In this document: positions 1 to 33,567 of the stretch, one piece after another
Numbering within the stretch: position 1 is the stretch's first letter
Layout of the letters: the number at the start of each line of letters is the position of its first letter
IMG/VR virus record: IMGVR_UViG_2579778778_000007
Source: a virus
Lineage: Duplodnaviria; Heunggongvirae; Uroviricota; Caudoviricetes
Length of the DNA: 34,897 bases
Strand: one strand, 5' to 3'
Made by a program: the position numbers and the translations under genes
Notes under the pieces: model-generated
Seen by the model: the letters and a program-made list of their open reading frames with translations, nothing else
Told to the model about the DNA's origin: nothing
The model's database searches: none

Positions 1-19
1 CGCATCCCTGCGCTATATT

Positions 20-2386
20 TTAAATAAACATAAGAATAAACATCAGAAGTTCCTCGTATCTGATACCATACTGATAACCAGCAGGTTTAATAATAACCTG
101 CCTTCCTGTGTAATATTCCTCGTCGTACCACTCTCCTGTTTCATTGTTTTTAACACTCCTAATTAATACCTCTGGAGCATAAATATCATCCCATTCATCA
201 TAACACCAGAACGCATAGTTATTAGGTTCAAGACCGTATTTTCTGAGAATATTACCTACAGTTTGTGCACCAACACCGAAATGAATCCGAGCGCCATCAC
301 TCTTGATCTTTACTGCATCTTTAAATTTAAACCTCCAGATATTTTCCTTTATTTCAAGCGCAGCAAGACGCTCTGATTCTGTTGTTTTCTCGTCAGCCTC
401 AATACGCAATTTCAGCTCTTCATTCGACGTGTTGATACTGCCAGTACCAGCGTATACCTGTGACCATCGAAATGCTGATGTTCCGTTTGAGTTAACATTA
501 TCAACAGTTGGTTTTATAAGGCCAGAAAAATGAGTTTCAGGTGTATTAATATATGTATATGCACCTGCTGTACTGCGAGTCCTTAACTCAAAACTGTCTA
601 TATCAACACCAGTCCTACGAATTATAAGGAAGTTATTTCCTGCGGAACCAGTATCTGTTTGAGTGCTAACAGATAATCCGTTTCGTGTATCAATACGTAT
701 ATTCTTCCCGTTCTCCAGCGAAGCAGAATTATGTAGATGCAGCGAGTTGTCAGTGTAGAGATGGTGTTTACCTACATTACTAAATGTATAAGTATTGCTT
801 GTGTCATCACTGTTCCTATGGAATTGCTGAAGAGTGTAGGCAGAAGATGCTCCGTATCCATCACAATGGAAATTTCTGCACAGCTGCAAATCGAATAACA
901 ATACGGTGTCAGCATTAATGCTCACATTATTAAAGCATGTTGCAAAGTTGGCACCATACTGTGAATTGGAATCGCCAATCTGTGCGCACACATCAAGCAA
1001 ACCAAAAGTTACATTGGTAAAGTTATTTGCATCACCGGCGTCAAGAACAATCCCTTTCTTAGTCCCTGAATACCCTCTGGCAGTGCCGATCTCAATTCCC
1101 TGGAATGAACACACGCGAGCACGACTAAGCTTAAGACCAACCCATTCCAGACCATGATCGTAACCTTTTGCTGCGCGGTGAATAAACATACCATTCATGA
1201 TGAGCAGGAATCTGTTATCCAGCCGTACTGGTTCAAGTTGGGCATTAATACCAACATTTGTGCATATACATTCACCATAAGCATAACGATTCGTTTCAAA
1301 TATACGATCATCAGCGTCGTAAATGCCTCGTAATGCCTTGGCGGCATCAATATTAAGCAATGTAAAATATGTCTTCTGCTTAATTTCAAAAAAATTTGCA
1401 ACATTATGCGTTGTGATATCACTCACACGCATTGATAAAATCCCCTCTTCTGGAGCGGTGCGAATGAATCCATCAAGGAACTGTTCATTATAACTTTTGG
1501 CTATCTGATAACATCCAACAGCATCAATGCGTTCGATTGTGAATTGCCAACTATCACCACAGTTAAAAGACCATTCCCAACCGTATTTCTGTGCGAATTC
1601 ATCAGAATCAATATTTGCAGTCTCAGAACAGAAAGATAAAAATCTAAATGTTGGTTTTGGCCTTAGATGATTAAGCCCGACACCTCTTGGGGTATATATG
1701 GCATTAGCGCCATTCCCGCCTTTGCTTTTAATTGTAAGGTGACTTAAACCAAATTCAACATCATGCTTAGTTGGTGCAGCGAAAACAAATCCATCTTTTG
1801 GTGATGTGGTATTATCAAACACAATAACCGTTTTACCCTGTCCATCGCCACACATATTCACTGGTGGTATATTAACTGGTCCAATTAAATTATATGTTCC
1901 AGTTGGAATATATAACTTTCCACCATCTCCAAGAGCATTTGCTGCTGCAATAAATGCCACCGTATCATCGTTAACACCGTCACCTTTCGCCCCATAATGC
2001 TGTGGCGTAATTAACAGCATACGGTCAGAAAAAATCTCTGTCCTAAGTTGATCAGGATCGTATTTTAATACATTTGGAAAATAAAACTGCTGTGTACCAT
2101 ACGCATCATAAACAGCCATAGAATGGCCTTGCACAGTTACGAACTTGGCAATCTGTCCGTTATATACCGGATATCCAGCAGCATTAATGATGATTGGTTG
2201 CGGAACAGGAACGTGAGAGCCGTCTTCGTTCTCCACATAAACCTGAATCTGGTTTTCAGGATTTACCGGGTCAGTGTCAATTTTACCGATATAAATTTTG
2301 CCATTAGCTACGGCTTTAAAAGAACGCGCCATAGTGAAGAGTTGCGAAGGCATCGATACGATCACATTGGCTGTAATGTCTGTCAT
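20..2386 (-). CDS. Tailspike protein: P22 gp9-like N-terminal head-binding domain, pectate-lyase-like beta-helix receptor-binding domain, distinct C-terminal extension
   Basis: ORF track 788 aa; N-terminus [11 protein letters not shown]...[11 protein letters not shown]...[13 protein letters not shown] matches remembered P22 gp9 head-binding domain; [12 protein letters not shown] motif typical of beta-helix depolymerases. Confidence 0.85.
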
Positions 2387-2452
2387 TTAATTTGCTCCAG
2401 ATACAAGGAATCGCCGCAGCATGGCTACGGTTGGTATTTGTTTGGTTTTTGA

Positions 2453-2471
2453 ACTACGAAAATTTCGTAGT
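2453..2471. promoter_or_regulatory. Perfect 9-bp-arm palindrome (ACTACGAAA a TTTCGTAGT) in the tailspike leader, flanked by an 8-bp long-range inverted repeat (2414-2421 / 2501-2508)
   Basis: Read directly from sequence; lies between ant terminator and tailspike start. Confidence 0.3.
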
Positions 2472-2522
2472 GCTATCCATCAAGGCCATCGCCGCTTAGT
2501 TGCTGCGGTGAATTTTGGGCAT

Positions 2523-2545
2523 AAAAAAACCCAGCCGAAGCTGGG
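2523..2545 (-). terminator. Rho-independent terminator downstream of ant (minus strand: CCCAGC-UUCG-GCUGGG followed by U7)
   Basis: GC stem with tetraloop and A-run on plus strand (U-run on minus) 20 nt downstream of the ant stop codon. Confidence 0.6.
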
Positions 2546-2564
2546 TCGTTGCGTTGGTTATCTG

Positions 2565-3488
2565 TCAGTAGTTATGTACTGAAGGAGGCAATTCTTTATT
2601 CTTAAGTCTCATCCATGCGGAAAGATTCGTTGGTCCGTCTGGCTCATTGATATCAACATCTCGTGTGTGGTTGATTAAAACGTCTCTCGCCATTCCGATA
2701 ACATACGAGAACTCATGACCATAGTCGTAGCATCTGCCGGAATAGTTCGATTGAATTTGTTTTAGCGCCGGATACAGTTCGCGGAATAATGCCTGTGAGC
2801 GGTTGGCATAATCCCATAACCATACAAGGCTGTTTGCTTCTTTTGCAGAAAGCTCGTTGGTTTTCTTCTCTTGTTTGCCGATTAACTCGCCTTCAAGCGG
2901 AACGCGAGCTGCAAGTGACAGAGCTTCGGTAAACTGCTCATCGCTGATTTCTTTGTATGAACACCCAAAATGAGATTTCAGTGACGACCACATGGTAATC
3001 ATTGCCTTCGCCTGTTTTTCTTTTGGCAGAGACTGACCGCGACTCATGACGAGTTGTTTAATGGCTTCCTGCTGTTCAGTGGTGATTTTACCCGGCAACG
3101 CCTTTTTAGCTTTGCGTGGGTTAACTACATGGCCTTTAGTCCAGTACTCGTAGAGCACATCGTCACACTCTTCCTGATACTGGATTACATTGTCGCGGAT
3201 TTCAGGGCGGACTTTGTTAGGGCTGATGGTTTGCAACCAGCCATTCAGTTTACGTAAAGCAAGGCAAATCATGGTCTGCACACCGCCAACTGAAGGTATT
3301 GCGATTTCCACAATACCTTTAGCAAATCTTTGTTTTAACTTTGTAAACTGTGAAGCCCAATCCATACCCATTCCCTCAACGATAGGTTTCATTGGGGTGT
3401 ACGGCTCACCGTTGTGATTGACAACATAAAGCTCTGCGCCGTGGAATGGTACATTGATAGTAGATACTGCTGTTGCTATACTTTTCAT
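2565..3488 (-). CDS. ant: Antirepressor (Ant-like)
   Basis: ORF track 307 aa; position downstream of arc and divergent from mnt-like gene exactly as in P22 immI; N-terminal segment resembles antirepressor family as remembered. Confidence 0.55.
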
Positions 3489-3570
3489 GTCGTTAATTCC
3501 TATGCGTGGTTTTACGATACCGAAGCCCTGACTGTTCCCGCAGTTGGGGCTTCACTGTTTTGATTTCTTT
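3489..3570 (+). ncRNA. Candidate sar-like antisense small RNA covering the ant ribosome-binding site
   Basis: Plus-strand promoter TTGATA (3454-3459) - 17 nt - TATACT (3477-3482) inside the ant 5' end, reading antisense across the ant SD; plus-strand hairpin 3522-3553 followed by U-rich tail to 3570. Confidence 0.35.
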
Positions 3571-3586
3571 GCCGCATCCAAGCGAA

Positions 3587-3727
3587 TCACACCGTTATCC
3601 CCTCTCTCCTCAGGCTGTCCAGCACCCGTTTAATTACTTCTGCGCTGAATGAGCGACACTCTTCCTTTGCTTTTTCTTCAAGGATTTTTTCTAGCTTCTC
3701 TGGCATACGCAGTGTTTTTACCTTCAT
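3587..3727 (-). CDS. arc: Arc-like ribbon-helix-helix repressor (46 aa, below ORF-track size cutoff)
   Basis: Hand-translated MKVKTLRMPEKLEKILEEKAKEECRSFSAEVIKRVLDSLRREGITV; SD GGAGG 5 nt upstream of ATG; resembles P22 Arc as remembered; sits between mnt-like gene and ant. Confidence 0.6.
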   Translation of the reverse strand: MKVKTLRMPEKLEKILEEKAKEECRSFSAEVIKRVLDSLRREGITV

Positions 3728-3740
3728 TGCATCCTCCGTT

Positions 3741-3804
3741 GTATGTGGTACGCATACATAGTATTTAGGTACGCATTGATAGTCAATAGATACCTACATA
3801 TCCT
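3741..3804. promoter_or_regulatory. Divergent overlapping promoters (Pant-like on minus: TTGACT-17-TACTAT; Pmnt-like on plus: TTGATA-17-TATCCT) with dyad-symmetric operator candidates
   Basis: Direct repeat GGTACGCAT at 3747-3755 and 3768-3776; nested dyad AGGTA..ATTGA tag TCAAT..TACCT at 3767-3795 centred on the overlapping -35 elements. Confidence 0.45.
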
Positions 3805-3832
3805 GTGGTAAAAAATTATTCAGGATGCGCCG

Positions 3833-4084
3833 ATGTCTGATCGTAAGTACAAAAACCCTCAAGTGAATCTGAGGCTTCCTGTAGAGATAAAGGAACGTCT
3901 TATTGAACTGGCTGAGGCTAATTCTCGTTCATTAAATGCTGAGATGGTCGCGGCACTTGAAGCGTGGACCGAAAAAAATAAACACATTCAAGCACTAGAC
4001 CTTGCAACTATAGCATCACGATTGATAGATCTTGAACACGATGTTGAGACGCTAAAGACCATGTATGGTAAGGATGCAAAATGA
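3833..4084 (+). CDS. mnt: Mnt-like ribbon-helix-helix repressor
   Basis: ORF track 83 aa (same length as P22 Mnt as remembered); N-terminal RHH-like segment NLRLPVEIKERLIELAEANSRSLNAEM; divergent from arc-ant. Confidence 0.55.
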   Translation: MSDRKYKNPQVNLRLPVEIKERLIELAEANSRSLNAEMVAALEAWTEKNKHIQALDLATIASRLIDLEHDVETLKTMYGKDAK

Positions 4085-5948: not shown

Positions 5949-8117
5949 TTACTCCTGTGCCATTCCGCTTAGCGATGCCACAATTCCAGCTCTTGCTAAA
6001 CGCTGGAACTCTTCGTTTCCTAGTGCCTCGCGTATTGCTTTTACGGCGGCCTTATTTGCCATAAATCTGCGTTCCGCCGCCGCTAATGCACCATCACTTG
6101 CCCCAACCTTAACTGCCTTTGTTGCCTCTTGAACAGCCTTTTCAATAGCGTAACGACCGCTTCTAGTTGCGGATAATTTCGCTATCGCTCCTTTTGCCAT
6201 TGCATCAATTGCCCCACCTGCAGCGCCACCCGCTATTGCTCCAATAACGCCTCCTCCAGAGAACCCTGCGATAGTGCCAGTAGTTCTAAAAGCGCCAGAC
6301 AATGCGCTCTCTAAAACTGGATGAAGGCCATTCTCAAGAGTGCTAATGGCTGGCATAGATCGCCCTGTCTGTTCAACATATCGAAGTGGCTTTGTTGCTG
6401 CTCGTGCAAGTTCTCCGTATGAACTTGTAATCCTGCCAAGTTCTGGAGAATATCGACTAATTGCCTTCACGTTTTGTGGGGTAAGAATAGTCGCGATATG
6501 CTTAATTCCAGCCTCTTCAGACTTACCTCCGCGTACCCCTTGCGACATTGCATCTTGTAATATTGATGCAATTGCTGGCGCGCGTTCCGACTCAGGTAGG
6601 GCGCTTATTATTTTATGGAACTGACCTGTTCCACTTTTTGCTGAACCCTGTAACGCCTTAGATCCATTAGTTACCAACTGATCAGTTGCAAGGTCTCTAC
6701 CAAACGCTGCTTCAGCCTGTTCTTGTGCTGTAAATCTTGCCTTTGACAGATCATTAGCTTTTTGCCAGTCATCAAGAAAACCGCCATTTTGAGCCATTAT
6801 GCGCATATCTTCCGTTGCTGCATCACGAAGCTCAGCCATGCGCCTTGCCGTATTTGCCTCACCAGACCTTATATACTTCTGCTCTGCGTCAGCAAGTTTA
6901 CTTCGCCATGCCTTCATGGCATCAAACGTGATTCCTTTTTTACCAGTTTTAGCATAAGCAGATGCGAATTGTTTCATCTCAGGAGTTAGCGGCATGCCAG
7001 CCAAAATATCACCCTGAATTGTAGCGTTCAGGTTTGACATTCTGGCCTTTGCGTCAGGCATCGTGGAGCGGACGCTATCCCATGCAGCCTTTTCTGAATT
7101 TTTCATTTTATCAATACTTGCCAAAACCCTTTGTTTTATGGCTGCACTTTTTTCTGATGCAGTTCCTGCTTCAGCCCCAAACTCATCCAATGCTGAGTTA
7201 AATTTCGACTCTATTTCACTGAATGCTTTGGTGTGTGCATCCTGTGTAATTCCGGGCTTTGACGCCAGAATCCCCTCCGCCTGAGCAAGACCACGACTAC
7301 CTGATCTCATGCCAGGAGTTAATGCGTTGATATCTATTCCAGCAGTATCTGCTGCTTTTGCTATTTCGTCTGACACATTAGCTGACTGTCTGGCAATAAT
7401 CTCTCTTCCTGTACCAGACTTTGCCATTTTCGAAACATCAGCAGCGGAATTTATTGCCCCGCCACCAAGAACTTGAGGTGATTTAGAGGTTAAGATCCTT
7501 CCAGCCCCAGAAAGTATCCCCTGAGCACCAATATTGATACCACCGTTAATGGCAGCATTTTGTGCAAAGTCGCCCTCCTGATTTGCAGCATCAGCAAGAG
7601 AACCTGCAATCATGTTTCCTGCGGAACCGATATCTTCAGCGAGCTTTGCTGGCGCTCCAGCAGCTTTTGCCGCTGTGCCAATTGGCAGGAGATACCCACC
7701 AATTGTTTCACCGGCTTGCGCGTAAGGGTCTGTCGGTCGATCGACAGGGCGATAAACATCATCCAAAACCTTTGGGCCACCAAGCCCCTGGCTGATTGCA
7801 TTAATCAGACTTGCGCCACCCTGCAATACGTCAAATGGTATGTTTACCAGACCACGACCAGCCTGTTCTGCAATTTGCCCTGCACTTTGACCACCAGTGA
7901 GCCAATCGCCAGCTTGTTGCATCAATGATGGTTCTTCTTTCTGCTGCTGAGGTGGAGGGTATGCTGCATAAAACTGATCTCTTGCTTCAGCCCATTTGTC
8001 ACCAGCCTTAGGGGCAACAACCTCATCAAAATATTGCGCTTGAGCCTGTGCTTTCTGTTCTTCAGTTAACGCCTGATACTGTGGAGAAGCGATAACATCT
8101 TTCCATGCTTTAGCCAT
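5949..8117 (-). CDS. Ejection (injection) protein, P22 gp16-like
   Basis: ORF track 722 aa; Ala/Gly-rich; synteny after gp20-like gene. Confidence 0.65.
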
Positions 8118-9466
8118 TAATCACCCCATAAAGACGAGAAACCAGACTTATTGCTGTCGCTTCCTGATTTTCGCTCACTAACATATGTGTCATAACCTGA
8201 TGAACTATATCCCATTGATTCAGCCTCCCTTGCTGCAACCTTTTGAAATACAGAATATTGCGATCGGATTTCAGATAACTGTTTTCTGACGACCTCTTCA
8301 GGCTGTGTTATATCGAGTTTCGCGATAAGGTTTTCCAGTTTTTGTCCTTCAGCATTGGAGAGGCTACCCATACCTCGCATAGTCTGCACGTTCTGGACAA
8401 ACGCACCCGACTTTAATTCTTCTATCGCATTACGGTTTGCAAGCCCTTCAGCACTTGTGAAGCCATCTATATTTCTTCCTTCGAAGCGACCGATACCTTC
8501 AAGCTCCTTCTTACCAAGCAAAGAATCTATTTTCTCTATCCCTCGCTCACCAGTAATCAACGCATTGTTGTAATTATTGTTGCCATCAAGCCATCTCTTA
8601 GCCTGAGACATTCTGGCTGACGTTGCAGCTTTACCGGTTAGCGGATCAATTCCCGTCGCTGCTATCTGTGAGTTAAGAGACAAAACATCCATATCCTGAA
8701 GTTGTCCTGCTCTTTCAAGGGCCGCCTGTGACTGCTTAAACACATACTTGTCGTGATTCAGTCTTGCCATTTGAGCCTTATAGGAAAGATCCTGCCCCCT
8801 AATAGCCCTCGCATTCGTCATGTCATTATTGCGAATGGTTTCGTTAATTCTTTGCTGCTCCTGCTGGCGACCAGCCATCTTATCCTGAACAGCAAACGCC
8901 TTTTCTGGTCCAAGCGCACCGAGAGACATAGTAGTCAGCATGTGTGATAGCTGCTCTGGATTCTGGATACCTGTCTGAATCATCCAGTCAGCATTCGCCC
9001 CCACGCGATTTAACCTGTCCTTGTTGTCAGTAATGAATTTACTGTAGGCTTCCGGTCCCTGAGAAAGAGCGACGTTAGCCCTCATGGCTAAATCGCCCAT
9101 ATCGTTGCGTTGCTGCTCATTAAGACCGGAAAACGCCTGTTGTGCCTGTGCAACAAACGCTGGATTTTCCTGGGCAAACTTAAATAGTCCCGATGGATCA
9201 CCAGAAGCCCATGCATCAGCGTGAACCTTATTGAACGCACTAATAGCTTTCTGTTGCTGTTCCTGATTGTAAATATCAGCAACTCCAGCCAGACCACGTA
9301 ACGCGGTCAGACCAACGTTATTTGCACCTGAGCGAGCCAGTTCATTGTTTTCGCGGATCAGACCAAGCGTTGCGTTAATGTCGCTTGCCTTTGGCGCATT
9401 CTCATTTTGCGTACCGATGCCAGCCAGAAAACCACCAGAATTAATACCCTGTTGCCACGTAGCCAT
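8117..9466 (-). CDS. Ejection protein, P22 gp20-like
   Basis: ORF track 449 aa; synteny between gp7-like and gp16-like genes. Confidence 0.7.
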
Positions 9467-9475
9467 GATTACCCC

Positions 9476-10165
9476 TTAAAACAACGAGCCAAGCAGACCA
9501 AGACCGCCGCCGATCGCAGCCCCCCACGGAGTTGATGAACCAATTAATTTCGCAAGTCCAGCCCCAGCAATAGCACCAGACGCACCTCCGCCAATAGCAG
9601 ATTGCATTGCTGATGGTCTGTTGGCATTTGCCGCTGCAAGAGCCGCACTTTGCTGCGAAATCTGACTCATGTTGTTGGCATATGTCTGCCCGGCGTTTGC
9701 CTGACCTTGCAGTGCGCCAAGACCAATATTTGCCAGATTCTGGTAGTTGTTCATCTGACCAGATAGCCATTGCTGACCAAGCGTTGGTGCGATTATTGCT
9801 AACTGATTACCGGTTGCAGTGGAACCCAATCCACCTGTTGCTTCCGCTGCCGCCAGACTCTGATAGCGCGCCTGACCAGCAAGGTCTTTGTACTGCTGAG
9901 AGTTGTAATACTGGTTAAGCGCCTGACCTTGCCCCTCCAGAGACGATAAGTTCTCGAGGCTGCCGACATACTTATCAGCCAGAGGAGTAAACGGCTTCAG
10001 GTTGTTCATGATGGTGTTGAACTGCTGATTTTGCAGGTCTGCTGCATACTTCTGAGCTTCTGCTGCATACTTTGCGCTTTTATCAGAGCCACCTTTCCCG
10101 CCTTTTTCAGGGCAATAAGGTTCCTCGCCGCGCAGTTTTCTGCCCAGCTTAAATGCATATAACAT
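9476..10165 (-). CDS. Ejection protein, P22 gp7-like
   Basis: ORF track 229 aa; near-identical to remembered P22 gp7 (MLYAF.LGRKLRGEEP...GGGLGLLGSLF). Confidence 0.85.
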   Translation of the reverse strand: MLYAFKLGRKLRGEEPYCPEKGGKGGSDKSAKYAAEAQKYAADLQNQQFNTIMNNLKPFTPLADKYVGSLENLSSLEGQGQALNQYYNSQQYKDLAGQARYQSLAAAEATGGLGSTATGNQLAIIAPTLGQQWLSGQMNNYQNLANIGLGALQGQANAGQTYANNMSQISQQSAALAAANANRPSAMQSAIGGGASGAIAGAGLAKLIGSSTPWGAAIGGGLGLLGSLF

Positions 10166-10167
10166 GG

Positions 10168-13714: not shown

Positions 13715-13728
13715 GCTTGTCTCCAGAT

Positions 13729-13750
13729 AAAAAAGGGAGCCGAAGCTCCC
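13729..13750 (-). terminator. Rho-independent terminator immediately after coat gene (minus strand GGGAGC-UUCG-GCUCCC-U6)
   Basis: Perfect 6-bp stem, tetraloop, run of 6 A on plus strand; 8 nt downstream of coat stop. Confidence 0.6.
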
Positions 13751-13758
13751 TCTGGTTA

Positions 13759-21183: not shown

Positions 21184-21185
21184 TG

Positions 21186-23796: not shown

Positions 23797-23944
23797 GCTT
23801 CACTCCTGCTTTGGCTAGTCTGTAAACACCAACAAGGCGCTCTGCGAACGCCCTGTTATTTGCTGCGGCTACCACTAATCCCTCAGGTGAATCAGGGTGT
23901 CGAATCTCTTCTTTTTCCTGGTATTTCTTACGACGTTTTGTCAT
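23783..23944 (-). CDS. Hypothetical small basic protein (53 aa) between cII-like gene and O
   Basis: Hand-translated MTKRRKKYQEKEEIRHPDSPEGLVVAAANNRAFAERLVGVYRLAKAGVKHGRR; SD AGGAG 5 nt upstream; 3' end overlaps O start. Confidence 0.35.
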   Translation of the reverse strand: MTKRRKKYQEKEEIRHPDSPEGLVVAAANNRAFAERLVGVYRLAKAGVKHGRR

Positions 23945-23976
23945 AATTACTCCTGTGGATTGATCCAGTAATTCCC

Positions 23977-24273
23977 TCAGAATTGCATATCAATTTGCTT
24001 AAAATCCTCGGTGGCGGCCGGGGATTTTTTCTTTGTGATTTCATCAAGCGCATACTTAAAAGCCCTGCTAATCGGACTGATGTCTGATGCCATTCCGAAA
24101 GCACACAAGACCGAAGCAATAAATCTCCAGTCCGTTCTGCTTATCTTCGATTCATGACAGCCAATCATCTTTGCCAGACCGCGCTGGGTAAGCGTTGACA
24201 GGTTGATGAGTAAATCAGTTTCTGCGCGATCAATTTCTCGCTGTGTTGGCTTGCTGTAACTTGCTTGTGTCAT
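23977..24273 (-). CDS. cII: CII-like transcriptional activator (not lambda-type over most of its length)
   Basis: ORF track 98 aa; HTH-like TQRGLAKMIGCHESKISR; C-terminus KKKSPAATEDFKQIDMQF resembles remembered lambda CII tail; position after cro/nutR. Confidence 0.6.
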   Translation of the reverse strand: MTQASYSKPTQREIDRAETDLLINLSTLTQRGLAKMIGCHESKISRTDWRFIASVLCAFGMASDISPISRAFKYALDEITKKKSPAATEDFKQIDMQF

Positions 24274-24357: not shown

Positions 24358-24393
24358 TCGCTTTGTCAGCGACGTAGGACGAATGTCCATTGT
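24358..24393 (-). promoter_or_regulatory. nutR-like site: boxA-like CGCTCTTTT (24385-24393) and boxB hairpin UCGCUGACAAAGCGA (24358-24372)
   Basis: boxB has same loop GACAA as nutL boxB at 27070-27084; boxA matches CGCTCTT consensus. Confidence 0.55.
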
Positions 24394-24410
24394 GAAAAGA
24401 GCGGTGTTAC

Positions 24411-25425: not shown

Positions 25426-25502
25426 GGCCAGCAACGGATCACAACAAACACATGGGGCGGCGGATTAAGGGTGATGGAGAATCGAAATAAGTTGAGGTCA
25501 AC

Positions 25503-25658
25503 ATGAACACGTTCAGCATAATCGCGATACCTTTTTTTGCCCTTTCAGTGGTTCTGTTGACTCTTGGCGCTACCAGGAAGAACCAAGCCAGCTTCATCGT
25601 TGGCGGCGTGTTTATGGCGTCATGCGTGGTTAATGCCATTATCGGCATGTCTCTTTGA
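25503..25658 (+). CDS. Hypothetical small hydrophobic protein (51 aa, two predicted membrane helices), below ORF-track cutoff
   Basis: Hand-translated MNTFSIIAIPFFALSVVLLTLGATRKNQASFIVGGVFMASCVVNAIIGMSL; SD GAGG 5 nt upstream; 78 nt downstream of cI stop. Confidence 0.4.
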   Translation: MNTFSIIAIPFFALSVVLLTLGATRKNQASFIVGGVFMASCVVNAIIGMSL

Positions 25659-25850
25659 GCGCTATGAGATCAGGCATCCTCGTTACTTTGTCATGTGTGA
25701 CAGCCTGGTATGCACTCTGCGAGCTTTGATGTGGTTTACCACTTTAATAGTCACCGTATCACTAAACTGATTAGCTTTACTCATACTCTTGTGGATTCGC
25801 TATTTCTGATGTCAATGCAAAAAAATACTAAGGAAACAAAAAGGATACTT

Positions 25851-26117
25851 ATGTCAGATAACACTATTAAAATCATACCTCAGCACATGACCGCCACATC
25901 AGTTCTTATTACGCCTGATCGTGCTGAAACAATCATTACTTTTTACCGCCATGAATTTGAGCATCACATGCAGTCTGATGAGCAAGGAAATAATAGCTTC
26001 CAAGTAAAAGTTGAGTTGACCCCTAACATGTCAGTCTCAATGAGCCCGGATCAAGCTGTTGCATTAGTAAAATCATTACAGGTAGCTCTCAGGGATAATG
26101 GGCTATGGAAAGACTGA
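25851..26117 (+). CDS. Hypothetical protein (88 aa from ATG 25851)
   Basis: ORF track 25710-26117; ATG at 25851 preceded by AAAAAGGA; no recognised homology. Confidence 0.5.
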   Translation: MSDNTIKIIPQHMTATSVLITPDRAETIITFYRHEFEHHMQSDEQGNNSFQVKVELTPNMSVSMSPDQAVALVKSLQVALRDNGLWKD

Positions 26118-26755
26118 AGCCAGTTTCTTCAGTTCAACCTACCTCAGGAACAACATCATCAGTTCTTCCAAGTATTATAGTTAGTGCAACCCTAGCAGCG
26201 ACAACCGTTTCTCCTTATGGGGATCCATCTCAGTACCAAAGTATTGGTATTGATGCTAAGGTATCAAATAGAGTTTCATACGCCATGGACGAAACGGGTT
26301 TGCGCCCAAGTAAGGAAGATGTAGCGATGAAGAGTGATACCCTGGAGGTAAGCGTGAGCGGAATGTCCAGAGAAGAACTTGACGCAAAGCTTTCACAAAA
26401 CAAATCAGAGGTAGAGTCTATTGCTGCGGAAATGCGTCGCGAATCAGCTGACTTTAAAACCTATTATACTCAGCAATTTTCTTCTATTGAGAGAGGTATT
26501 GCTGAAATTAAAGGTGAAATCGGCGGTTTGAAAACGGGACTTACAACGACTCAGTGGGCGATGGCCGTTGGCTTGACTTTAGTTACTGTGATTCTGTCTG
26601 GCGTGATGTTAGCCTCAAGTTGGATTATCTCCGGCAATGACAAGTCACCATCAGTAACCAGCCCGGCTCCAATTATAATACAGGTACCGACACAGCAACC
26701 ATTAACGAGCGCTCCAACTAACCAATCGTCATCACAACAAGCTCCTAAGCAATAA
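26105..26755 (+). CDS. Hypothetical membrane-anchored protein: Ser/Thr-rich N-terminus, coiled coil, one transmembrane helix, Pro/Gln/Ser-rich tail (alternative start ATG 26327)
   Basis: ORF track 216 aa; 13-nt overlap with upstream gene; hydrophobic WAMAVGLTLVTVILSGVMLASSWII. Confidence 0.6.
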   Translation: MERLKPVSSVQPTSGTTSSVLPSIIVSATLAATTVSPYGDPSQYQSIGIDAKVSNRVSYAMDETGLRPSKEDVAMKSDTLEVSVSGMSREELDAKLSQNKSEVESIAAEMRRESADFKTYYTQQFSSIERGIAEIKGEIGGLKTGLTTTQWAMAVGLTLVTVILSGVMLASSWIISGNDKSPSVTSPAPIIIQVPTQQPLTSAPTNQSSSQQAPKQ

Positions 26756-26760
26756 ATAAA

Positions 26761-26787
26761 CCCGGCCACCGCGCCGGGTTTTCTTTG
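26761..26787 (+). terminator. Rho-independent terminator ending the cI-side operon just before OL
   Basis: CCCGGC-cac cgc-GCCGGG followed by TTTTCTTT, 6 nt after stop codon. Confidence 0.6.
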
Positions 26788-26938
26788 CCTCACGTTCGCC
26801 CCAAAACACATAACCAATTGTATTTATTTGAAAATTAATAGATACAACTCACTAAACATCGCAATTCAGATCTCTCGATCACCTCCCAAGCCACACACCC
26901 CTGCAAAAAAAATAAATCTATATAAAAAACATACAGAT

Positions 26939-27001
26939 AACCATCTGCGGTGATAAATTATCTCTGGCGGTGTTGACATAAATACCACTGGCGGTGATAC
27001 T
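26939..27001. promoter_or_regulatory. Lambda-type left operator OL3 (26939-26955), OL2 (26959-26975), OL1 (26983-26999) and pL (-35 TTGACA 26973-26978, -10 GATACT 26996-27001)
   Basis: Matches remembered lambda OL/pL; similarity to lambda ends about 15 nt after the -10. Confidence 0.85.
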
Positions 27002-27069
27002 AAACACATCAGCAGGACGCACTACTCACCAGGGCGGTGAATATACAACGATTCGAATATGAATCTACG

Positions 27070-27636: not shown

Positions 27637-27861
27637 ATGAATCAGACATACATTCCATCATGCTTGAGAAATCTGCCAAAGCAGAAAGCAAAGCCCCGCA
27701 AGCAAGCCATAAAGGACGCTAAGGCAGAGGTTATTGATCAAGCAATACAATTGCTCAGGGAGGAGTTAAGAAGTGGCAAGCTCGAAGGAATGATGATGCC
27801 CTATCAGCGCGGATATCTATCGGCGATTAGTAAGTTGGAAGTATTGAAGAGTGAATTATGA
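27637..27861 (+). CDS. Hypothetical early-left protein
   Basis: ORF track 27634-27861; ATG 27637 with SD GAGG. Confidence 0.5.
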   Translation: MNQTYIPSCLRNLPKQKAKPRKQAIKDAKAEVIDQAIQLLREELRSGKLEGMMMPYQRGYLSAISKLEVLKSEL

Positions 27862-28175
27862 ACTATCTGGAATTTCCGGATGGTTCATTGTTTTGGCAGC
27901 AAACCACTTATTTGAGGTGGGATATGGAGTTTCATGAAAGTGCGATTTGTGATTTTCGCGCTAACGCAAATTCAGTAAAACCACAGCCAATTGCAGTTCT
28001 TTTTAAAACAATGGGTGCGTGGGCTGTTTTATGCTTCGCCGCTGACGACACTGACGCAAGAATGGCAATAGGCCAAGAGATGGAGATGGACCCGACAAAC
28101 GATGAATTCATAATTTATGGCGCTCCATCTAATTACTTACTTGATACCTGCAACATTTACAACAAGGCTGCCTGA
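27858..28175 (+). CDS. Hypothetical early-left protein
   Basis: ORF track 105 aa; ATGA overlap with upstream gene. Confidence 0.5.
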   Translation: MNYLEFPDGSLFWQQTTYLRWDMEFHESAICDFRANANSVKPQPIAVLFKTMGAWAVLCFAADDTDARMAIGQEMEMDPTNDEFIIYGAPSNYLLDTCNIYNKAA

Positions 28176-28543
28176 TGGTGGCCTTTATTTTTGGCATAAA
28201 CAATATTGGGGTAAAAATGAAAGTTTTAATGGTTTATGAAAATGTTCCAGAGTCGACTGAAATCTATATTTTTGATGCCAATGAAGATGAAGTTAACGAT
28301 TTAAAATTGTCTCACGGCAATTACACAAATGCTAATTGTGATGAAAGTATCGAAAAAGCACTATCACGTGTTCTTGTCAGAATCAGCGATCCAGAACATT
28401 GTGATAATGATTGGCTTTCTTATTGTGGAGCGGTAAAAACTGATGCAGGAAAATGGAGTAAAAGTAAAGTTGATAACTCAACTCCAATCATTATGAAAGA
28501 TAGTGATATTGAAATGGTAATAATAACCGGAATGATTGTGTAG
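28175..28543 (+). CDS. Hypothetical acidic protein (alternative start ATG 28217)
   Basis: ORF track 122 aa; AT-rich. Confidence 0.5.
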   Translation: MVAFIFGINNIGVKMKVLMVYENVPESTEIYIFDANEDEVNDLKLSHGNYTNANCDESIEKALSRVLVRISDPEHCDNDWLSYCGAVKTDAGKWSKSKVDNSTPIIMKDSDIEMVIITGMIV

Positions 28544-28649
28544 GATGCGAATAAGCGCTGTGTATTCATTCCAACGAGTGAATACACGGAGCAATGTCGC
28601 TCGTAACTAAACAGGAGACGACTTGTTCTGATTATTGGAAATCTTCTTT

Positions 28650-28676
28650 GCCCTCCAGTGTGAGGGCCTTTTTATA
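28650..28676 (+). terminator. Rho-independent terminator (GCCCTC-cagtgtg-GAGGGC-CTTTTTAT) upstream of cIII
   Basis: Read directly; positioned like a tL terminator that N-modified transcription reads through. Confidence 0.5.
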
Positions 28677-28739
28677 TGCATACCAATAATGCTTCACCAG
28701 AGGCATTTTCGTTATGCAATCAAACAGAAGGAGCATCCT

Positions 28740-28910
28740 ATGCAACAGTTCGCTATTGCAGGGGCGGCATCGGTTCGCCCTTTCAACCCGATTTTATCGG
28801 TACAGCATTCACGAAAAAACATTTTAACCGGAGCAGACTTTAAACAACCAAGAATGAAAAGCTTGCTCGAAAAGCTTTGGGATATTTTGAAACAACAAGG
28901 CCGTCCATGA
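28740..28910 (+). CDS. cIII: CIII-like protein
   Basis: ORF track 28635-28910; ATG 28740 with SD AAGGAG 6 nt upstream; MQQFAIAG...SLLEKLWDILKQQGRP resembles remembered lambda CIII. Confidence 0.55.
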   Translation: MQQFAIAGAASVRPFNPILSVQHSRKNILTGADFKQPRMKSLLEKLWDILKQQGRP

Positions 28911-29077
28911 GTTTTACAGATAACTGGTCAGACGAAGAATTCATTCGTCAGATGAAAGAATTAATCGGTAACGAAGGAGATATTCATGTCACTTGCAACC
29001 ACAGTGAAGGAGAGCAAGTTACAGAGACGCATGTACACGCAGCAGGCGTTAATGTATCGCCAGAAGGGAGATCGTGA
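28907..29077 (+). CDS. Hypothetical protein at the kil position (56 aa)
   Basis: ORF track 28877-29077; ATG overlaps cIII stop (ATGA); overlaps the next candidate in another frame. Confidence 0.3.
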   Translation: MSFTDNWSDEEFIRQMKELIGNEGDIHVTCNHSEGEQVTETHVHAAGVNVSPEGRS

Positions 29078-29156
29078 AGGTGTTCGCGTATTTTTAAATG
29101 CGGCAAAGACTGAAGTATTAAATCAGCGTTATTTCCTTGGGCCGTGTCCATTCTGA
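28986..29156 (+). CDS. Hypothetical protein at the arf position (56 aa), immediately upstream of erf
   Basis: Hand-translated MSLATTVKESKLQRRMYTQQALMYRQKGDREGVRVFLNAAKTEVLNQRYFLGPCPF; strong SD GGAG 6 nt upstream. Confidence 0.4.
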   Translation: MSLATTVKESKLQRRMYTQQALMYRQKGDREGVRVFLNAAKTEVLNQRYFLGPCPF

Positions 29157-29166
29157 GATCAAACAT

Positions 29167-29772
29167 ATGAGCAAAGAATTTTATGCAAGGCTGGCAGCCA
29201 TTCAGGAGAATCTGAACGCGCCAAAGAATCAGTACAACTCATTCGGTAAATATAAATACAGAAGCTGCGAAGACATTCTTGAAGGAGTTAAGCCGTTACT
29301 GAATGGTCTGTTTTTATCAATCAGCGATGAAGTTGTGTTGATTGGTGATCGGTATTACGTGAAAGCCACGGCAACTATTACCGATGGCGAAAACAGTCAT
29401 ACGGCAACCGCTCTTGCACGAGAGGAAGAAAGCAAGAAAGGAATGGATTCTGCACAAGTTACGGGAGCTACAAGCTCTTATGCACGCAAGTATTGCCTCA
29501 ATGGTTTATTCGGCATTGATGATGCGAAAGATGCAGATACCGACGAGCATAAACATCAGCAGAACGCAGCAGCAAAGCAATCAAAACCATCACCTACGCC
29601 TGAACAGGTTCTAAAAGCATTCACTGACGCAGCAATGCAGAAAAACACCGTGGAAGAGCTTAAACAGGCGTTCGCCAAAGCGTGGAAGATGCTCGAAGGC
29701 ACACCGGAGCAGCACAAAGCGCAGGACGTTTACAACATCAAACGAGACGAATTAGAAGGAGCGGCTGCTTAA
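29167..29772 (+). CDS. erf: Erf single-strand annealing recombinase (P22 Erf-like)
   Basis: ORF track 29137-29772; from MSKEFYARLAAIQENLNAPKNQYNSFGKYKYRSCEDILEGVKP closely matches remembered P22 Erf. Confidence 0.9.
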   Translation: MSKEFYARLAAIQENLNAPKNQYNSFGKYKYRSCEDILEGVKPLLNGLFLSISDEVVLIGDRYYVKATATITDGENSHTATALAREEESKKGMDSAQVTGATSSYARKYCLNGLFGIDDAKDADTDEHKHQQNAAAKQSKPSPTPEQVLKAFTDAAMQKNTVEELKQAFAKAWKMLEGTPEQHKAQDVYNIKRDELEGAAA

Positions 29773-30155
29773 TGGCACATTCGATTACTGTAAGACTAAA
29801 CAAGCCCGCAAGAGAGTTTCAGGCCGGGGAAAATATCGGATTCAACATCCGTGCTGGCGTTCAGTATTACGATCGCCAGACAAAAAAGAAAGAATGGACA
29901 AACTACAGCGCCGTTGTAGTTGCCAAGCCGGGAGCGCAAGCGGATTACTACCGTAGTGTTCTTGTTGAAGGTGGCATTGTGGAAATTACCGGAGAAAACA
30001 TCAGGGTTGATGTTTATCAGGGGCAAAATGGTCAATCAATCACTCTTGAATTACTGAATGCAAAGATTGGATTTGCAGCTTCAGGAAATGGCCCGCAGCA
30101 GCAAAGTAGTAACCAGCAGAACACTCCTGTATACGACGATTCCATCCCATTCTGA
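29772..30155 (+). CDS. ssb: Single-stranded DNA-binding protein-like (short SSB with C-terminal DDSIPF tail)
   Basis: ORF track 29682-30155; ATG 29772 overlaps erf stop; C-terminal acidic tail ...DDSIPF characteristic of SSB. Confidence 0.65.
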   Translation: MAHSITVRLNKPAREFQAGENIGFNIRAGVQYYDRQTKKKEWTNYSAVVVAKPGAQADYYRSVLVEGGIVEITGENIRVDVYQGQNGQSITLELLNAKIGFAASGNGPQQQSSNQQNTPVYDDSIPF

Positions 30156-30178
30156 TTCAGAAAAATAAGGATTTAATC

Positions 30179-30475
30179 ATGCCAGCGCCTCTGTATGGTG
30201 CGGATGACCCGCGCCGTTGTTCCGGCAATTCCATATCGGAGGTGCTGGATAAATTCAGAAAAAACTACGACCGGATAATGTCGCTACCGCAGGAAACGAA
30301 AGAGGAAAAGGAATTTCGCCACTGTATATGGCTTGCAGAGAAAGAAGAACGCGAGCGAATTTACCAGACATCAATCCGACCATTCCGCAAAGCCACATAT
30401 ACCCACTTCCCTGAATATATCGACCCGCGCCTGCGTAATTACCGCTCACGCTATGGCGCTATCAGTAATGACTGA
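30179..30475 (+). CDS. Hypothetical protein (positional analogue of P22 anti-RecBCD abc genes; homology not verified)
   Basis: ORF track 98 aa. Confidence 0.45.
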
Positions 30476-30485
30476 GGAATTCACC

Positions 30486-30656
30486 ATGAGAGGACTTGCA
30501 TACAATCCCGGCATTCTTCCGGCAGAAATGATTATTCGCCAACGCGTAAAGCCAATGCCATCGAGAGAGGAATTGCTTAAGAGAAATTCTTTTCCGTCAG
30601 TGAATCAAAACAAATATCTGAATGCGATGTGGCGGAGTGGGAGGACTAACAAATGA
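30486..30656 (+). CDS. Hypothetical small protein
   Basis: ORF track 30333-30656; ATG 30486 with SD GAGG. Confidence 0.35.
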
Positions 30657-31339
30657 CCACTATAACCAAAGAGCGACTACTGACAATCAAGCAGTGGCGC
30701 GAAACATACGGACCTGGTAGCAACGTAGTGCTTCCAGCAGAAGAAGCGGAAGAGCTGGCACGGATTGCACTGGCATCACTGGAACGCGAACAGATTCGCC
30801 ACGAGCATGCCAAATGGTCTGACTCCACATTTGGCTGCGTTGGCCCCATTGGTCCACTGAAACACCTCTCAAAAGAGGCTCTGGAAGCCGCAGCAGAACC
30901 AGACGATCTTAGCGAGTGGGCTGATATGCAGTTTCTGTTGTGGGATGCACAGCGCCGTGCTGGCATCAGCGATGCTGAAATTACCGCTGCTATGGAAGAT
31001 AAATTGAAGATCAACATGGAGCGCCAGTGGCCTGAGCCAAAAGATGGTGAGCCTCGCTTGCACATTAAAGAACCCGGCAACTATCCGGTAACTCCGGATG
31101 GTTGGATAAGCTGTAGTGAGCGAATGCCAGAAATGGGAGAGCGACAATGCTATGTGTTAGCAGCTGACTTTAAAAACAACTACCCACCAAACATCCCCAA
31201 CACTCAGGTCGGCGTATATGGCGACTGGTTTAATGATGGCAATCCCACTTGGGATGACGGTGATGGCGAAGACCTGTATCTCAAAGAGGTAACCCACTGG
31301 ATGCCTCTACCAGAACCGCCTCGATTAAAGGAGCTATAA
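30653..31339 (+). CDS. Phage protein with N-terminal DUF550-like and C-terminal DUF551-like regions
   Basis: ORF track 228 aa; C-terminal ...[11 protein letters not shown] as remembered for DUF551 proteins. Confidence 0.5.
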
Positions 31340-31453
31340 TAGTGAACTATTATATCTATTTGTATTAAAAGAGTTTTTATAAAATAAATCTTCCAAAGCA
31401 TGTAAAAACACTGTTAATCTTAACGTGTGTGAAACGTGAAGAGAGGTGTTGAA

Positions 31454-31735
31454 ATGAGCATTCATGATTTGTGTGAAGATCAAGAGCAATGGGCTATGCA
31501 GACCCTTATGGGATCAGGAGTTCTTGCAAGGTGCAGAATCCATAACGATGTAATTTTAGACAGCGGAAATGATGCTTATTCTGCTTATAAATTAGGAACT
31601 TACCTATATCAAAAAGATAATAGCTGCAACTTATTCAATACTCTTACTGAAGCCCGCGACGCAATAAAGGATGCATATGAATCGTATTGTGGGATTGATG
31701 ATTGCCCACAATGCTCAAAATACATTGACGATTAA
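31454..31735 (+). CDS. Hypothetical protein (AT-rich moron)
   Basis: ORF track 31436-31735; ATG 31454 with SD GAGAGGTG 5 nt upstream. Confidence 0.5.
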   Translation: MSIHDLCEDQEQWAMQTLMGSGVLARCRIHNDVILDSGNDAYSAYKLGTYLYQKDNSCNLFNTLTEARDAIKDAYESYCGIDDCPQCSKYIDD

Positions 31736-31752
31736 TAATATGAACAAGTAAC

Positions 31753-31783
31753 AATCCTCGCACTCGCGGGGATTTCTTTTATC
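31753..31783 (+). terminator. Rho-independent terminator
   Basis: 9-bp stem AATCCTCGC/GCGGGGATT (one G-U) followed by TCTTTTAT. Confidence 0.55.
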
Positions 31784-31822
31784 TGAACTTGCTACGGCGA
31801 ATTTTGTTTTATGGAGATGATT

Positions 31823-32122
31823 ATGGTCTGTTCAACATTAAACCCTCTAACGTTACAGAAATACCAGCAAGACCCTGAAGATTTATGCTCACTGTGTGGC
31901 GGAAATCATGGTAAAGCCGCCATGATCGAATGTAAGGACAAAATCCACATATGCCTTAATTGCGTTGATGTCCTCGTTGATATCAAAAATGAGAGAGAAG
32001 ATAAAAAGCGTAGCGAGGCTATTCGCGCATTAGATTCATGGATGCGAGATGGGTATAGTGCTGCGCAAATTTATGACTTCGCAATATCAAAAGGCGAAAT
32101 ACCAGGAGTGCGCATCGAATAA
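31823..32122 (+). CDS. Hypothetical protein with CxxC...CxxC zinc-ribbon-like motif
   Basis: ORF track 31811-32122; ATG 31823 has SD GGAG 6 nt upstream; CSLCGG...CLNC. Confidence 0.5.
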   Translation: MVCSTLNPLTLQKYQQDPEDLCSLCGGNHGKAAMIECKDKIHICLNCVDVLVDIKNEREDKKRSEAIRALDSWMRDGYSAAQIYDFAISKGEIPGVRIE

Positions 32123-32162
32123 GACGTAACCAATATTCGAATTGAAGAACTGAAAGAACACC

Positions 32163-32187
32163 AAGCCGCCTGATGGCGGTTTTTTCT
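32163..32187 (+). terminator. Rho-independent terminator upstream of xis
   Basis: GCCGCC-TGAT-GGCGGT followed by TTTTTCTT. Confidence 0.6.
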
Positions 32188-32212
32188 TGCGTGTAATTGC
32201 GGAGACTTTGCG

Positions 32213-32431
32213 ATGTACTTGACACTTCAGGAGTGGAACGCTCGCCAGCGACGCCCAAGAAGCCTTGAAACAGTTCGTCGATGGGTGCGCGAATGCAGGA
32301 TATTCCCTCCTCCGGTTAAGGATGGAAGAGAGTATCTGTTCCACGAATCAGCGGTAAAGGTTGACTTAAATCGACCAGTAACAGGTAGCCTTTTGAAGAG
32401 GATCAGAAATGGGAAGAAGGCGAAGTCATGA
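32213..32431 (+). CDS. xis: Excisionase, lambda Xis
   Basis: ORF track 72 aa; matches remembered lambda Xis; overlaps int start. Confidence 0.9.
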   Translation: MYLTLQEWNARQRRPRSLETVRRWVRECRIFPPPVKDGREYLFHESAVKVDLNRPVTGSLLKRIRNGKKAKS

Positions 32432-33479
32432 GCGCCGGGATTTACCCCCTAACCTTTATATAAGAAACAATGGATATTACTGCTACAGGGACCCAAGGAC
32501 GGGTAAAGAGTTTGGATTAGGCCGAGACAGGAGGATAGCAATCACTGAAGCTATACAGGCCAACATTGAGTTATTTTCAGGACACAAACACAAGCCTCTG
32601 ACAGCGAGAATCAACAGTGATAATTCTGTTACGTTACATTCATGGCTTGATCGCTACGAAAAAATCCTCGCCAGCAGAGGAATCAAGCAGAAGACACTCA
32701 TAAATTACATGAGCAAAATTAAAGCAATAAGGAGGGGTCTGCCTGATGCTCCACTTGAAGACATCACCACAAAAGAAATTGCGGCAATGCTCAATGGATA
32801 CATAGACGAGGGCAAGGCTGCGTCAGCCAAGTTAATCAGATCAACACTGAGCGATGCATTCCGAGAGGCAATAGCTGAAGGCCATATAACAACAAACCCT
32901 GTCGCTGCCACTCGCGCAGCAAAATCAGAGGTAAGGAGATCAAGACTTACGGCTGACGAATACCTGAAAATTTATCAAGCAGCAGAATCATCACCATGTT
33001 GGTTAAGACTTGCAATGGAACTGGCTGTTGTTACCGGACAGCGAGTTGGTGATTTATGCGAAATGAAGTGGTCTGATATCGTAGATGGATATCTTTACGT
33101 CGAGCAAAGCAAAACAGGCGTAAAAATTGCCATCCCTACAACATTGCATGTTGATGCTCTCGGAATATCAATGAAGGAAACACTTGATAAATGCAAAGAG
33201 ATTCTTGGCGGAGAAACCATAATTGCATCTACTCGTCGTGAACCGCTTTCATCCGGCACAGTATCAAGGTATTTTATGCGCGCACGAAAAGCATCAGGTC
33301 TTTCCTTCGAAGGGGATCCGCCTACCTTTCACGAGTTGCGCAGTTTGTCTGCAAGACTCTATGAGAAGCAGATAAGCGATAAGTTTGCTCAACATCTTCT
33401 CGGGCATAAGTCGGACACCATGGCATCACAGTATCGTGATGACAGAGGCAGGGAGTGGGACAAAATTGAAATCAAATAA
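32409..33479 (+). CDS. int: Integrase, lambda Int (tyrosine recombinase)
   Basis: ORF track 356 aa; essentially identical to remembered lambda Int. Confidence 0.95.
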   Translation: MGRRRSHERRDLPPNLYIRNNGYYCYRDPRTGKEFGLGRDRRIAITEAIQANIELFSGHKHKPLTARINSDNSVTLHSWLDRYEKILASRGIKQKTLINYMSKIKAIRRGLPDAPLEDITTKEIAAMLNGYIDEGKAASAKLIRSTLSDAFREAIAEGHITTNPVAATRAAKSEVRRSRLTADEYLKIYQAAESSPCWLRLAMELAVVTGQRVGDLCEMKWSDIVDGYLYVEQSKTGVKIAIPTTLHVDALGISMKETLDKCKEILGGETIIASTRREPLSSGTVSRYFMRARKASGLSFEGDPPTFHELRSLSARLYEKQISDKFAQHLLGHKSDTMASQYRDDRGREWDKIEIK

Positions 33480-33567
33480 TGATTTTATTTTGACTGATAG
33501 TGACCTGTTCGTTGCAACAAATTGATAAGCAATGCTTTTTTATAATGCCTACTTAGTATAAAAAAGC
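33480..33567. other. Prophage attL: lambda P' arm (33480-33552) and 15-bp core (33553-33567, GCTTTTTTATACTAA on minus strand) joined to bacterial arm
   Basis: Reverse complement reads ...GAAGCCTGCTTTTTTATACTAAGTAGGCATTATAAAAAAGCATTGCTTATCAATTTG..., matching remembered lambda att sequence with one difference. Confidence 0.85.

Follow-up and report, generated by a model that had tools for sequence, protein, structure and literature searches.

A P22-like prophage with a lambda-type immunity region bounded close to the joints of the classical imm434 hybrid

How does an immunity region of phage lambda come to lie among genes that are not those of lambda? This question is raised by a stretch of DNA of 34,897 nucleotides (nt), the IMG/VR virus record IMGVR_UViG_2579778778_000007, which was analyzed as a whole and is called the window below. 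An earlier note, made from the letters of the sequence, had described lambda-type immunity and integration modules with sharp boundaries, embedded in non-lambda early genes and P22-like late genes. We are confident that the window represents almost all of a P22-like (Lederbergvirus-type) prophage at the lambda attachment site of E. coli, adjoining ybhC, and that this prophage is a lambdoid mosaic with an HK97-inherited lambda immunity, made defective by three deletions.

The composite nature of the element was evident from megablast comparisons with phage genomes. Positions 2,000–24,000 are nearest to the P22-like coliphages IME10, CurroJimenez, Louie and Dewey (93–96% identity) and more distant from Salmonella P22 (about 82%), while positions 23,000–34,900 are nearest to the siphovirus HK97 (98%), with lambda covering only 24% of them. 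The minus strand carries the virion genes (positions 20 to about 19544), to the right of which come the early genes; attL is at 33553–33567. The right end of the window enters chromosomal ybhC, and the window therefore represents a prophage in an E. coli-type chromosome. Positions 9538–30149 are 100% identical to contig AYJZ01000009.1 of assembly GCA_000511465.1.

We mapped the window by local blastn against lambda, HK97, P22 and IME10, and compared 50 window proteins with the same four phages by tblastn. Lambda-type sequence fell into discrete blocks (Table 1), and nothing in lambda 1–26999 matched the window anywhere. The sharpness of each joint was expressed as the number of matches in 40 nt inside and 40 nt outside it, ungapped. 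These numbers were 36 and 9 at boxA, 38 and 8 at the cI stop, 37 and 11 at the rexB stop, 38 and 17 in the pL leader, 40 and 8 upstream of xis, and 39 and 10 at the att core. Thus, at each of six joints, lambda identity appears or disappears over a few bases, in keeping with the sharp module boundaries that had been proposed; pairwise alignment with lambda, P22 and their relatives, the check suggested for this claim, revealed step-like joints and no gradual divergence.

The positions of the outer joints were determined to the base. On the pL side, the joint falls at window 27023 (lambda 35567), at +16 of the pL transcript and 22 nt beyond the −10 hexamer; patchy lambda similarity continues for about 17 nt beyond it. 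The abrupt end that the earlier note had placed here is real, but its distance from the −10, given as about 15 nt, is 22 nt by our measurement. On the cro side, the joint is at window 24397, inside the boxA of nutR and 14 nt past the cro stop codon, so that lambda identity indeed ends just after cro. Between these joints the lambda-type immunity block is discontinuous: positions 25422–26758, which run from the stop of cI to that of rexB, are non-lambda. The notion of a single bounded lambda module therefore holds for the outer joints but not for the rexAB interval within them, which has been swapped out. The int, xis and attL sequences are again of lambda type, as claimed, and tblastn and the reading of the boxB sequences agree that N, the nut boxB elements, cII, O and the helicase, erf and ssb, and the virion genes are not. 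Features that the note had omitted are the lambda-type ninE–ninI genes, the interruption of the immunity block and the three deletions.

How close are these joints to those of the classical imm hybrids, whose positions they had been said to match almost exactly? The lambda GenBank record J02459 holds no annotation of the imm434 boundaries, and we measured them directly on the sequenced lambda imm434 genome OM418626 aligned to lambda. Lambda homology stops at 35583 and restarts at 38247, giving a substitution of 35584–38246. The lambda block of the window ends at 35567 and 38255, and the proposed correspondence thus stands to within 16 nt and 8 nt, respectively. At each joint lies a linker common to lambda, 434 and the window, as seen in a three-way alignment: CATCAGCAGGACGCACT (17 nt; window 27007–27023, lambda 35583–35567) at the start of the pL transcript, and CCGCTCTT (lambda 38248–38255), the boxA of nutR. 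The imm434 joints are at the immunity-proximal edges of the linkers, whereas those of the window and HK97 are at the distal edges. Like lambda imm434, then, the window has a cassette exchange bounded at the pL leader and nutR boxA linkers, with a left joint that lies between the pL start and nutL and a right joint that lies past the end of cro but before the nutR boxB. The two differ in that lambda imm434 has a 434 cassette in a lambda background, whereas the window has a lambda cassette in an HK97/P22-type N–nut background.

The immunity joints were not peculiar to this prophage. Window 23766–27631, which includes the start of O, gp53, cII, nutR, cro, cI, the cassette in place of rexAB, OL/pL, nutL and N, is 99.64% identical to HK97 (NC_002167). 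HK97 has the same joints with respect to lambda, including gp49/gp48 for rexAB, and its att core is that of lambda. Given this identity across the whole block, the immunity joints must have been inherited and are older than the window prophage. Identity to HK97 is 94.7% in the erf–abc2 region and 98.7% in xis–int–att. Elsewhere the two diverge: HK97 is a siphovirus with head and tail genes of its own, whereas the virion genes of the window are of P22 type; the O-like protein and helicase of HK97 share only 23–31% amino acid (aa) identity with those of the window, which are IME10-type; and the window has three different open reading frames (ORFs) after N and is predicted to be defective.

The lambda/non-lambda joints of the immunity region also occur in mEp234, HK106 and PhiR5_2, and the same cI–cro–operator block with the same end points, accompanied by a variable cassette, was seen in mEp234, HK106, HK542, HK544, mEp332, SfI, CL707 and PhiR5_2. 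Wild lambda-immunity phages were reportedly described by Degnan et al. in 2007. None of those that we compared was seen to carry P22-type virion genes, unlike the window, and the nut sites of most of them are of lambda type, in contrast to the P22-type boxB of the window, HK97 and PhiR5_2. The joints specific to the window lie elsewhere. One, which separates the replication module from the immunity module, is within the 204-nt stretch 23766–23969 common to the HK97-type and IME10-type blocks, another is at the N stop codon (27631), and a third is within a 64-nt stretch upstream of xis (32122–32189) common to lambda, P22 and IME10. A conserved 33-nt pO/oop sequence, such as the first of these stretches covers, has been described (PMC3349717).

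We then considered what flanks the lambda-type block. The nutR boxA, CCGCTCTT, is the linker common to the window, lambda and 434; the boxB that follows it, UCGCUGACAAAGCGA, is of P22 type, and the nutL boxB, GCGCUGACAAAGCGC, is identical to that of P22 nutL. Neither lambda N nor a boxB of the form GCCCUGAARAAGGGC was present. The arginine-rich motif and C-terminus of the window N resemble those of P22 gp24, with no similarity to lambda N detectable by tblastn, and a P22-type boxB at both nut sites fits the P22-like arginine-rich motif. Because N, nutL and nutR of P22 specificity flank the lambda-type block, we conclude that the OL–cI–OR–cro cassette moved as a unit. This unit would have moved into, or out of, a P22-specificity N–nut background, the simplest route being crossovers at the two conserved lambdoid linkers, namely +1 to +16 of the pL transcript and the boxA of nutR. 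Co-transfer of cI and cro and general modular exchange among lambdoid phages are well documented (PMC9836094). The whole element is a typical lambdoid mosaic of P22/IME10 virion genes with P22 immI, IME10 replication genes, an HK97 segment from cII through N, and the int–xis–att of lambda/HK97.

A second exchange is nested within the immunity block. Between the cI stop codon (25423–25425) and that of the last gene in the cassette (26753–26755), rexA and rexB are replaced, and lambda-type sequence restarts exactly at the hairpin of the t_imm terminator; this exchange thus swapped out rexAB with precision, its limits being the cI stop codon and the terminator. When six other lambda-immunity phages were compared, at least four different cassettes were found between the cI stop and t_imm, and every compared cassette starts at the cI stop and finishes at the same terminator. 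The cI-to-N interval is said to have been recognized as a mosaic hotspot by Degnan et al. in 2007, according to a passage in a paper citing them. The cassette of the window gave no significant Pfam match and no credible PADLOC match, the hits obtained being below threshold (orf51 against PF22571, 16.6 bits with a cut-off of 27; the gp49-like ORF against PDC-S52, E=0.0095). Across the cassette and the other accessory (moron) genes, Pfam and PADLOC returned nothing significant except the P63C domain and the Arc fold. By position alone, gp49, gp48 and orf51 form a candidate exclusion cassette.

The repressor switch itself is very close to that of lambda. CI, Cro, Xis and Int share 98.5–99.2% aa identity with their lambda counterparts by tblastn, CI retains its Ala-Gly cleavage site as well as the Ser and Lys residues, and pR and pL were both recovered by a promoter scan. 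Near-identical CI and Cro, tripartite OR and OL, and the arrangement of PR, PRM and PL place the region, by its sequence, in the imm-lambda group. Since OL1–OL3 match lambda exactly and OR1 and OR2 are altered only at the central base, lambda immunity is expected: CI made from PRM would repress pL and pR and should render the host immune to lambda-immunity phages. The central change in OR1 (window 24646, position 9 of 17 base pairs (bp)) is shared with HK97; that in OR2 (window 24670, position 9 of 17 bp) occurs in neither HK97 nor lambda.

We characterized the three deletions, D1 to D3, by comparison with IME10 and P22 and with the intact prophage that strain Ecol_545 carries. D1 removed the last 232 bp of the helicase gene (residues 403–478), two small ORFs and the first 48 bp, or 16 codons, of ninB; on translation, the helicase meets a premature stop and is truncated at residue 402 of 478. 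D3 was defined by a base-level three-way alignment, and phage Huey and strain Ecol_545 show the intact gene order across this region. The large terminase is without residues 1–33 or more (P22 numbering) and without its native start. Q, holin, endolysin, Rz and the small terminase had no tblastn match anywhere in the window, so that the description of the late genes as P22-like holds for the virion genes, but not for Q, the lysis cassette and the small terminase, which are missing. The window thus contains neither the pair of small and large terminase subunits of a headful packaging system nor the replication genes, Q and lysis cassette of a functional lambdoid prophage. The truncation of the helicase, ninB, ninG, ninI and the large terminase, together with the loss of Q, lysis genes and the small terminase, argues that the prophage is defective, and the element is predicted to be incapable of autonomous replication, late-gene activation, cell lysis or DNA packaging.

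These three microhomology deletions cluster within about 2.2 kb (19543–21721), and the remaining 30 kb or so of prophage genes look intact. The intactness of other genes, such as the portal gene with 99.6% identity to IME10, suggests that the deletions are recent; their clustering could reflect stepwise domestication or simply decay. The D3 junction was spanned in none of 5,426 complete E. coli genomes, and its exact pattern was not found in one genome per species. An exact-protein look-up retrieved the exact NinI fusion protein from five public contigs with the same neighbor genes, one of these contigs being longer than 1 Mb. As a separate observation, an IME10 (NC_019501) product annotated as ‘regulatory protein Q’ (14843–15652, 269 aa) has 44 N-terminal residues that match the C-terminal region of the window NinI; this record looks like a mis-called start or a fusion.

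Table 1. Positions of the features of the window (plus and minus denote the strand)
Feature	Position	Strand	Remarks
Tailspike gene	20..2386	−	N-terminal P22 head-binding domain (Pfam Head_binding, E=1.5e-66)
P22-type immI region	2565..4084
ant	2565–3488	−	Pfam P22_AR_N, P22_AR_C
sar antisense RNA	3490–3556	+	Rfam, 76.6 bits
Arc-like ORF	3587–3727	−	46 aa, diverged; assigned by eye from resemblance to P22 Arc
Mnt-like ribbon-helix-helix gene	3833–4084	+	Pfam Arc domain
P22-type virion genes	5949..19544	−	gp16, gp20, gp7, gp14, gp26, gp10, gp4, coat, scaffold, portal, 5′-truncated large terminase
Tail needle gp26	10623–11576		317 aa, knob domain Phage_tail_NK (precomputed Pfam)
nin region	19538..21733	−	ninI (truncated), ninH, ninG (truncated), ninF, ninX, ninE, ninB; ninE–I lambda-type
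Lambda blocks ninE, F, G, H, I	19543–20342, 20341–20809, 21189–21355		92–97% nt (blastn)
D3	19543–19545		ATA microhomology; 3′-truncated ninI (lambda 43830) joined to P22-type gene 2, about 100 nt inside
D2	20341/20342		2-bp overlap; 260 bp lost within ninG
D1	21712–21721		10-bp overlap; 1254 bp gone relative to intact Ecol_545 prophage (blastn)
Replication module	21690..23796	−	DnaB-type helicase (truncated) and O-like initiator; IME10-type, 99.3% aa
Shared 204-nt stretch	23766..23969		orf53 and pO/oop conserved region; overlap of blastn blocks 21712–23969 (IME10) and 23766–27631 (HK97)
cII-like activator gene	23977..24273	−	HK97 allele, 100% to HK97; 35% aa to lambda cII
nutR	24358..24404	−	boxA 24397–24404; boxB 24358–24372
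Lambda block cro, OR, cI	24397–25421		lambda 38255–37231; 97.7% nt (blastn)
cro	24411–24611	−	1 of 66 residues differs from lambda (K39N)
OR1	24638–24654		differs from lambda only at central base
OR2	24662–24678		differs from lambda only at central base
OR3	24685–24701		identical to lambda
cI	24712–25425	+	2 of 237 residues differ from lambda (T3A, K71N)
Cassette at rex position	25426..26755	+	orf51, gp49-like, gp48-like, all 100% identical to HK97; ORFs span 25503–26755
orf51			51 aa, hydrophobic, predicted membrane character
gp49-like gene	25809–26117	+
gp48-like gene	26105–26755	+	216 aa, hydrophobic stretch near C-terminus
t_imm terminator, OL, pL stretch	26758..27023	+	lambda-type
Lambda block t_imm, OL, pL	26759–27040		lambda 35826–35550; 89% overall (blastn)
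OL3, OL2, OL1	26939–26955, 26959–26975, 26983–26999		each 17/17 against lambda
pL	−35 at 26973, −10 at 26996–27001, +1 at 27008
nutL boxB	27070–27084	+
N	27250–27633	+	HK97 allele
Early-left genes	27637..32122	+	all non-lambda; mosaic of HK97-, IME10- and P22-type sequence
Lambda block xis, int, att	32122–33567		lambda 29169–27724; 98.3% nt (blastn)
xis	32213–32431	+
int	32409–33479	+	3 residues differ from lambda Int (99.2% identity)
att core	33553–33567		preceded by P′ arm; 15 bp, 15/15 against lambda; with adjoining bacterial DNA forms attL
ybhC	33614..34897	+	bacterial, chromosomal flank of lambda attachment site; from ybhC annotation under matches in complete E. coli genomes

Could such a pattern have arisen with no recombination at all, by uneven gradual divergence from a common ancestor whose regulatory core was conserved while its flanks changed fast? 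Some flanking genes are distant homologs of lambda genes, cII with 35% aa identity for instance, and the patchy similarity over about 17 nt beyond the pL joint would be compatible with this explanation. However, identity drops from 90–100% to chance (8–11 of 40) within a few bases at five of the six joints, the flanks share 99.6% identity with a different phage, HK97, and 99% with IME10, and neither rexAB and gp49/gp48 nor exo/bet and erf/ssb have any detectable mutual similarity. The step-like identity profile led us to reject gradual divergence, which we consider scarcely conceivable. A recent and independent recombination with lambda itself, producing a new natural imm hybrid, would be in line with the finding that none of the listed phage isolates with full lambda cI–cro was recognized as P22-like, the genus having been checked for some of the records and a further 40 records lying outside the listing. 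Yet the cassette and both flanks are 99.6% identical to HK97 and only 97.7% identical to lambda, the flanks being HK97-type, and the joints specific to the prophage are elsewhere (23766–23969 and the N stop at 27631); we regard a recent hybrid as highly unlikely.

The source of the sequence calls for similar scrutiny, as a draft assembly (AYJZ01000009.1) in which nin-region sequences, repeated among prophages, might have produced a short-read chimera of lambdoid prophages; the mosaic, the deletions or both would then be artefacts, as they would be if lambda cloning vector had contaminated the sample. Against this, we judged the 2–10 bp overlaps at the deletion junctions too short to mislead an assembler, and the exact fusion protein recurs with the same neighbors on the five contigs, including the one above 1 Mb. 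Moreover, the lambda-type segments are 97–98% identical to lambda and not 100%, the integrase end runs into chromosomal ybhC, and the HK97 isolate has the same immunity-region joints independently. The short overlaps, the five contigs, the degree of identity and the ybhC flank led us to reject both assembly artefact and vector contamination, to which we assign a very slight probability. We thus retain the interpretation of the window as a defective mosaic prophage with HK97-inherited immunity, against which several points should be weighed. The attR site, at the left prophage end, is outside the window, so that the full extent of the element is beyond view; immunity, excision and defectiveness are all deduced from sequence; and another prophage in the same cell could in principle supply the missing functions in trans. 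Crossover at the linkers is inferred from where the joints are located, and much the same pattern could result from illegitimate recombination with subsequent selection; the comparisons do not fix the direction or order of the ancestral exchanges. We propose only tentatively, as a rather doubtful possibility, that the 8-nt boxA and 17-nt pL-leader linkers are recurrent natural crossover points, by which the immunity cassette would be delimited as an exchange unit among lambdoid siphoviruses and podoviruses, and, separately, that the element has been domesticated, the three clustered deletions having disabled its replication, late transcription, lysis and packaging while its lambda immunity, the predicted membrane proteins of its rex-position cassette and its immI functions were kept.

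The integration module consists of a tyrosine integrase, Xis and the 15-bp core GCTTTTTTATACTAA, with ybhC adjacent; the lambda integration site is between ybhC and ybhB. The catalytic residues R212, K235, H308, R311, H333 and Y342 of Int are all present, and Int and Xis appear intact in sequence. A single A-to-T change at 33550, beside the att core (window CTACTTAGT; lambda and HK97 CAACTTAGT), falls within attL in the C′ core-type site bound by Int and might reduce excision. The early-left region encodes three unknown ORFs, a cIII-like protein, Erf, SSB, Abc2, a dATP/dGTP pyrophosphohydrolase-DUF551 protein and other small ORFs; Erf, SSB and Abc2, assigned by PHROG, occupy the place of lambda exo, bet and gam. 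In the replication module, the O-like protein and helicase had no lambda match by tblastn. Within the O-like gene there is a 30-bp direct repeat (23316–23345 and 23382–23411, 66 bp apart), probably representing origin iterons.

The virion genes were assigned to P22 type by tblastn to P22 and IME10 and by the families P22_portal, P22_CoatProtein, Phage-scaffold, P22_Tail-4, Phage_stabilise, P22_gp7 and Head_binding; no virion protein matched lambda by tblastn. Window 11347–19544 is about 96% identical in nt sequence to IME10 and 77–87% to P22. The receptor-binding part of the tailspike is unrelated to that of P22 or IME10, tblastn covering only 15–21% of the protein; the head-binding domain is followed by a pectate-lyase-like region and then by weak, sub-cut-off matches to an endosialidase catalytic domain and Peptidase_S74. 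IME10, CurroJimenez, Louie, Dewey and Huey resemble the window in virion gene order and sequence, whereas the P22-like coliphages differ from it in immunity type, tailspike receptor-binding domain and gp16/gp20 alleles. Huey, a viable P22-like phage with lambda-type int/xis and a 434-type repressor, matches the window in architecture, but it keeps an intact helicase and the order NinI, Q, lysis genes, small terminase, large terminase, which the window does not.

A P22-type immI region is present besides the lambda-type immC, and the element therefore carries both controls. Its Arc-like ORF had no family match, and P22 Arc as query gave no tblastn match in the window. Two ORFs lie between mnt and gene 16, at the place of sieA in P22 (4494–5948), in DNA of low GC content (about 40–44%): one of 343 aa, on the minus strand, has a P63C domain, and the other, of 134 aa, matched no family. 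A scan of the window found no tRNA genes, and an Rfam scan found only the sar RNA.

What these results describe, and describe correctly, is already known lambdoid mosaicism at known published joints, with little reach beyond correct annotation. As such, the prophage neatly illustrates the modular theory of lambdoid phage evolution: a natural immunity cassette is bounded within 8–16 nt of the joints of a laboratory hybrid, each pair of joints falling on short linkers that are conserved. A practical consequence is that annotations should list the prophage as defective; its host is predicted to be immune to lambda and HK97-type phages. The element could also be a reservoir of intact modules, namely lambda immunity, lambda int/att and the P22 virion genes, for recombination with incoming phages.

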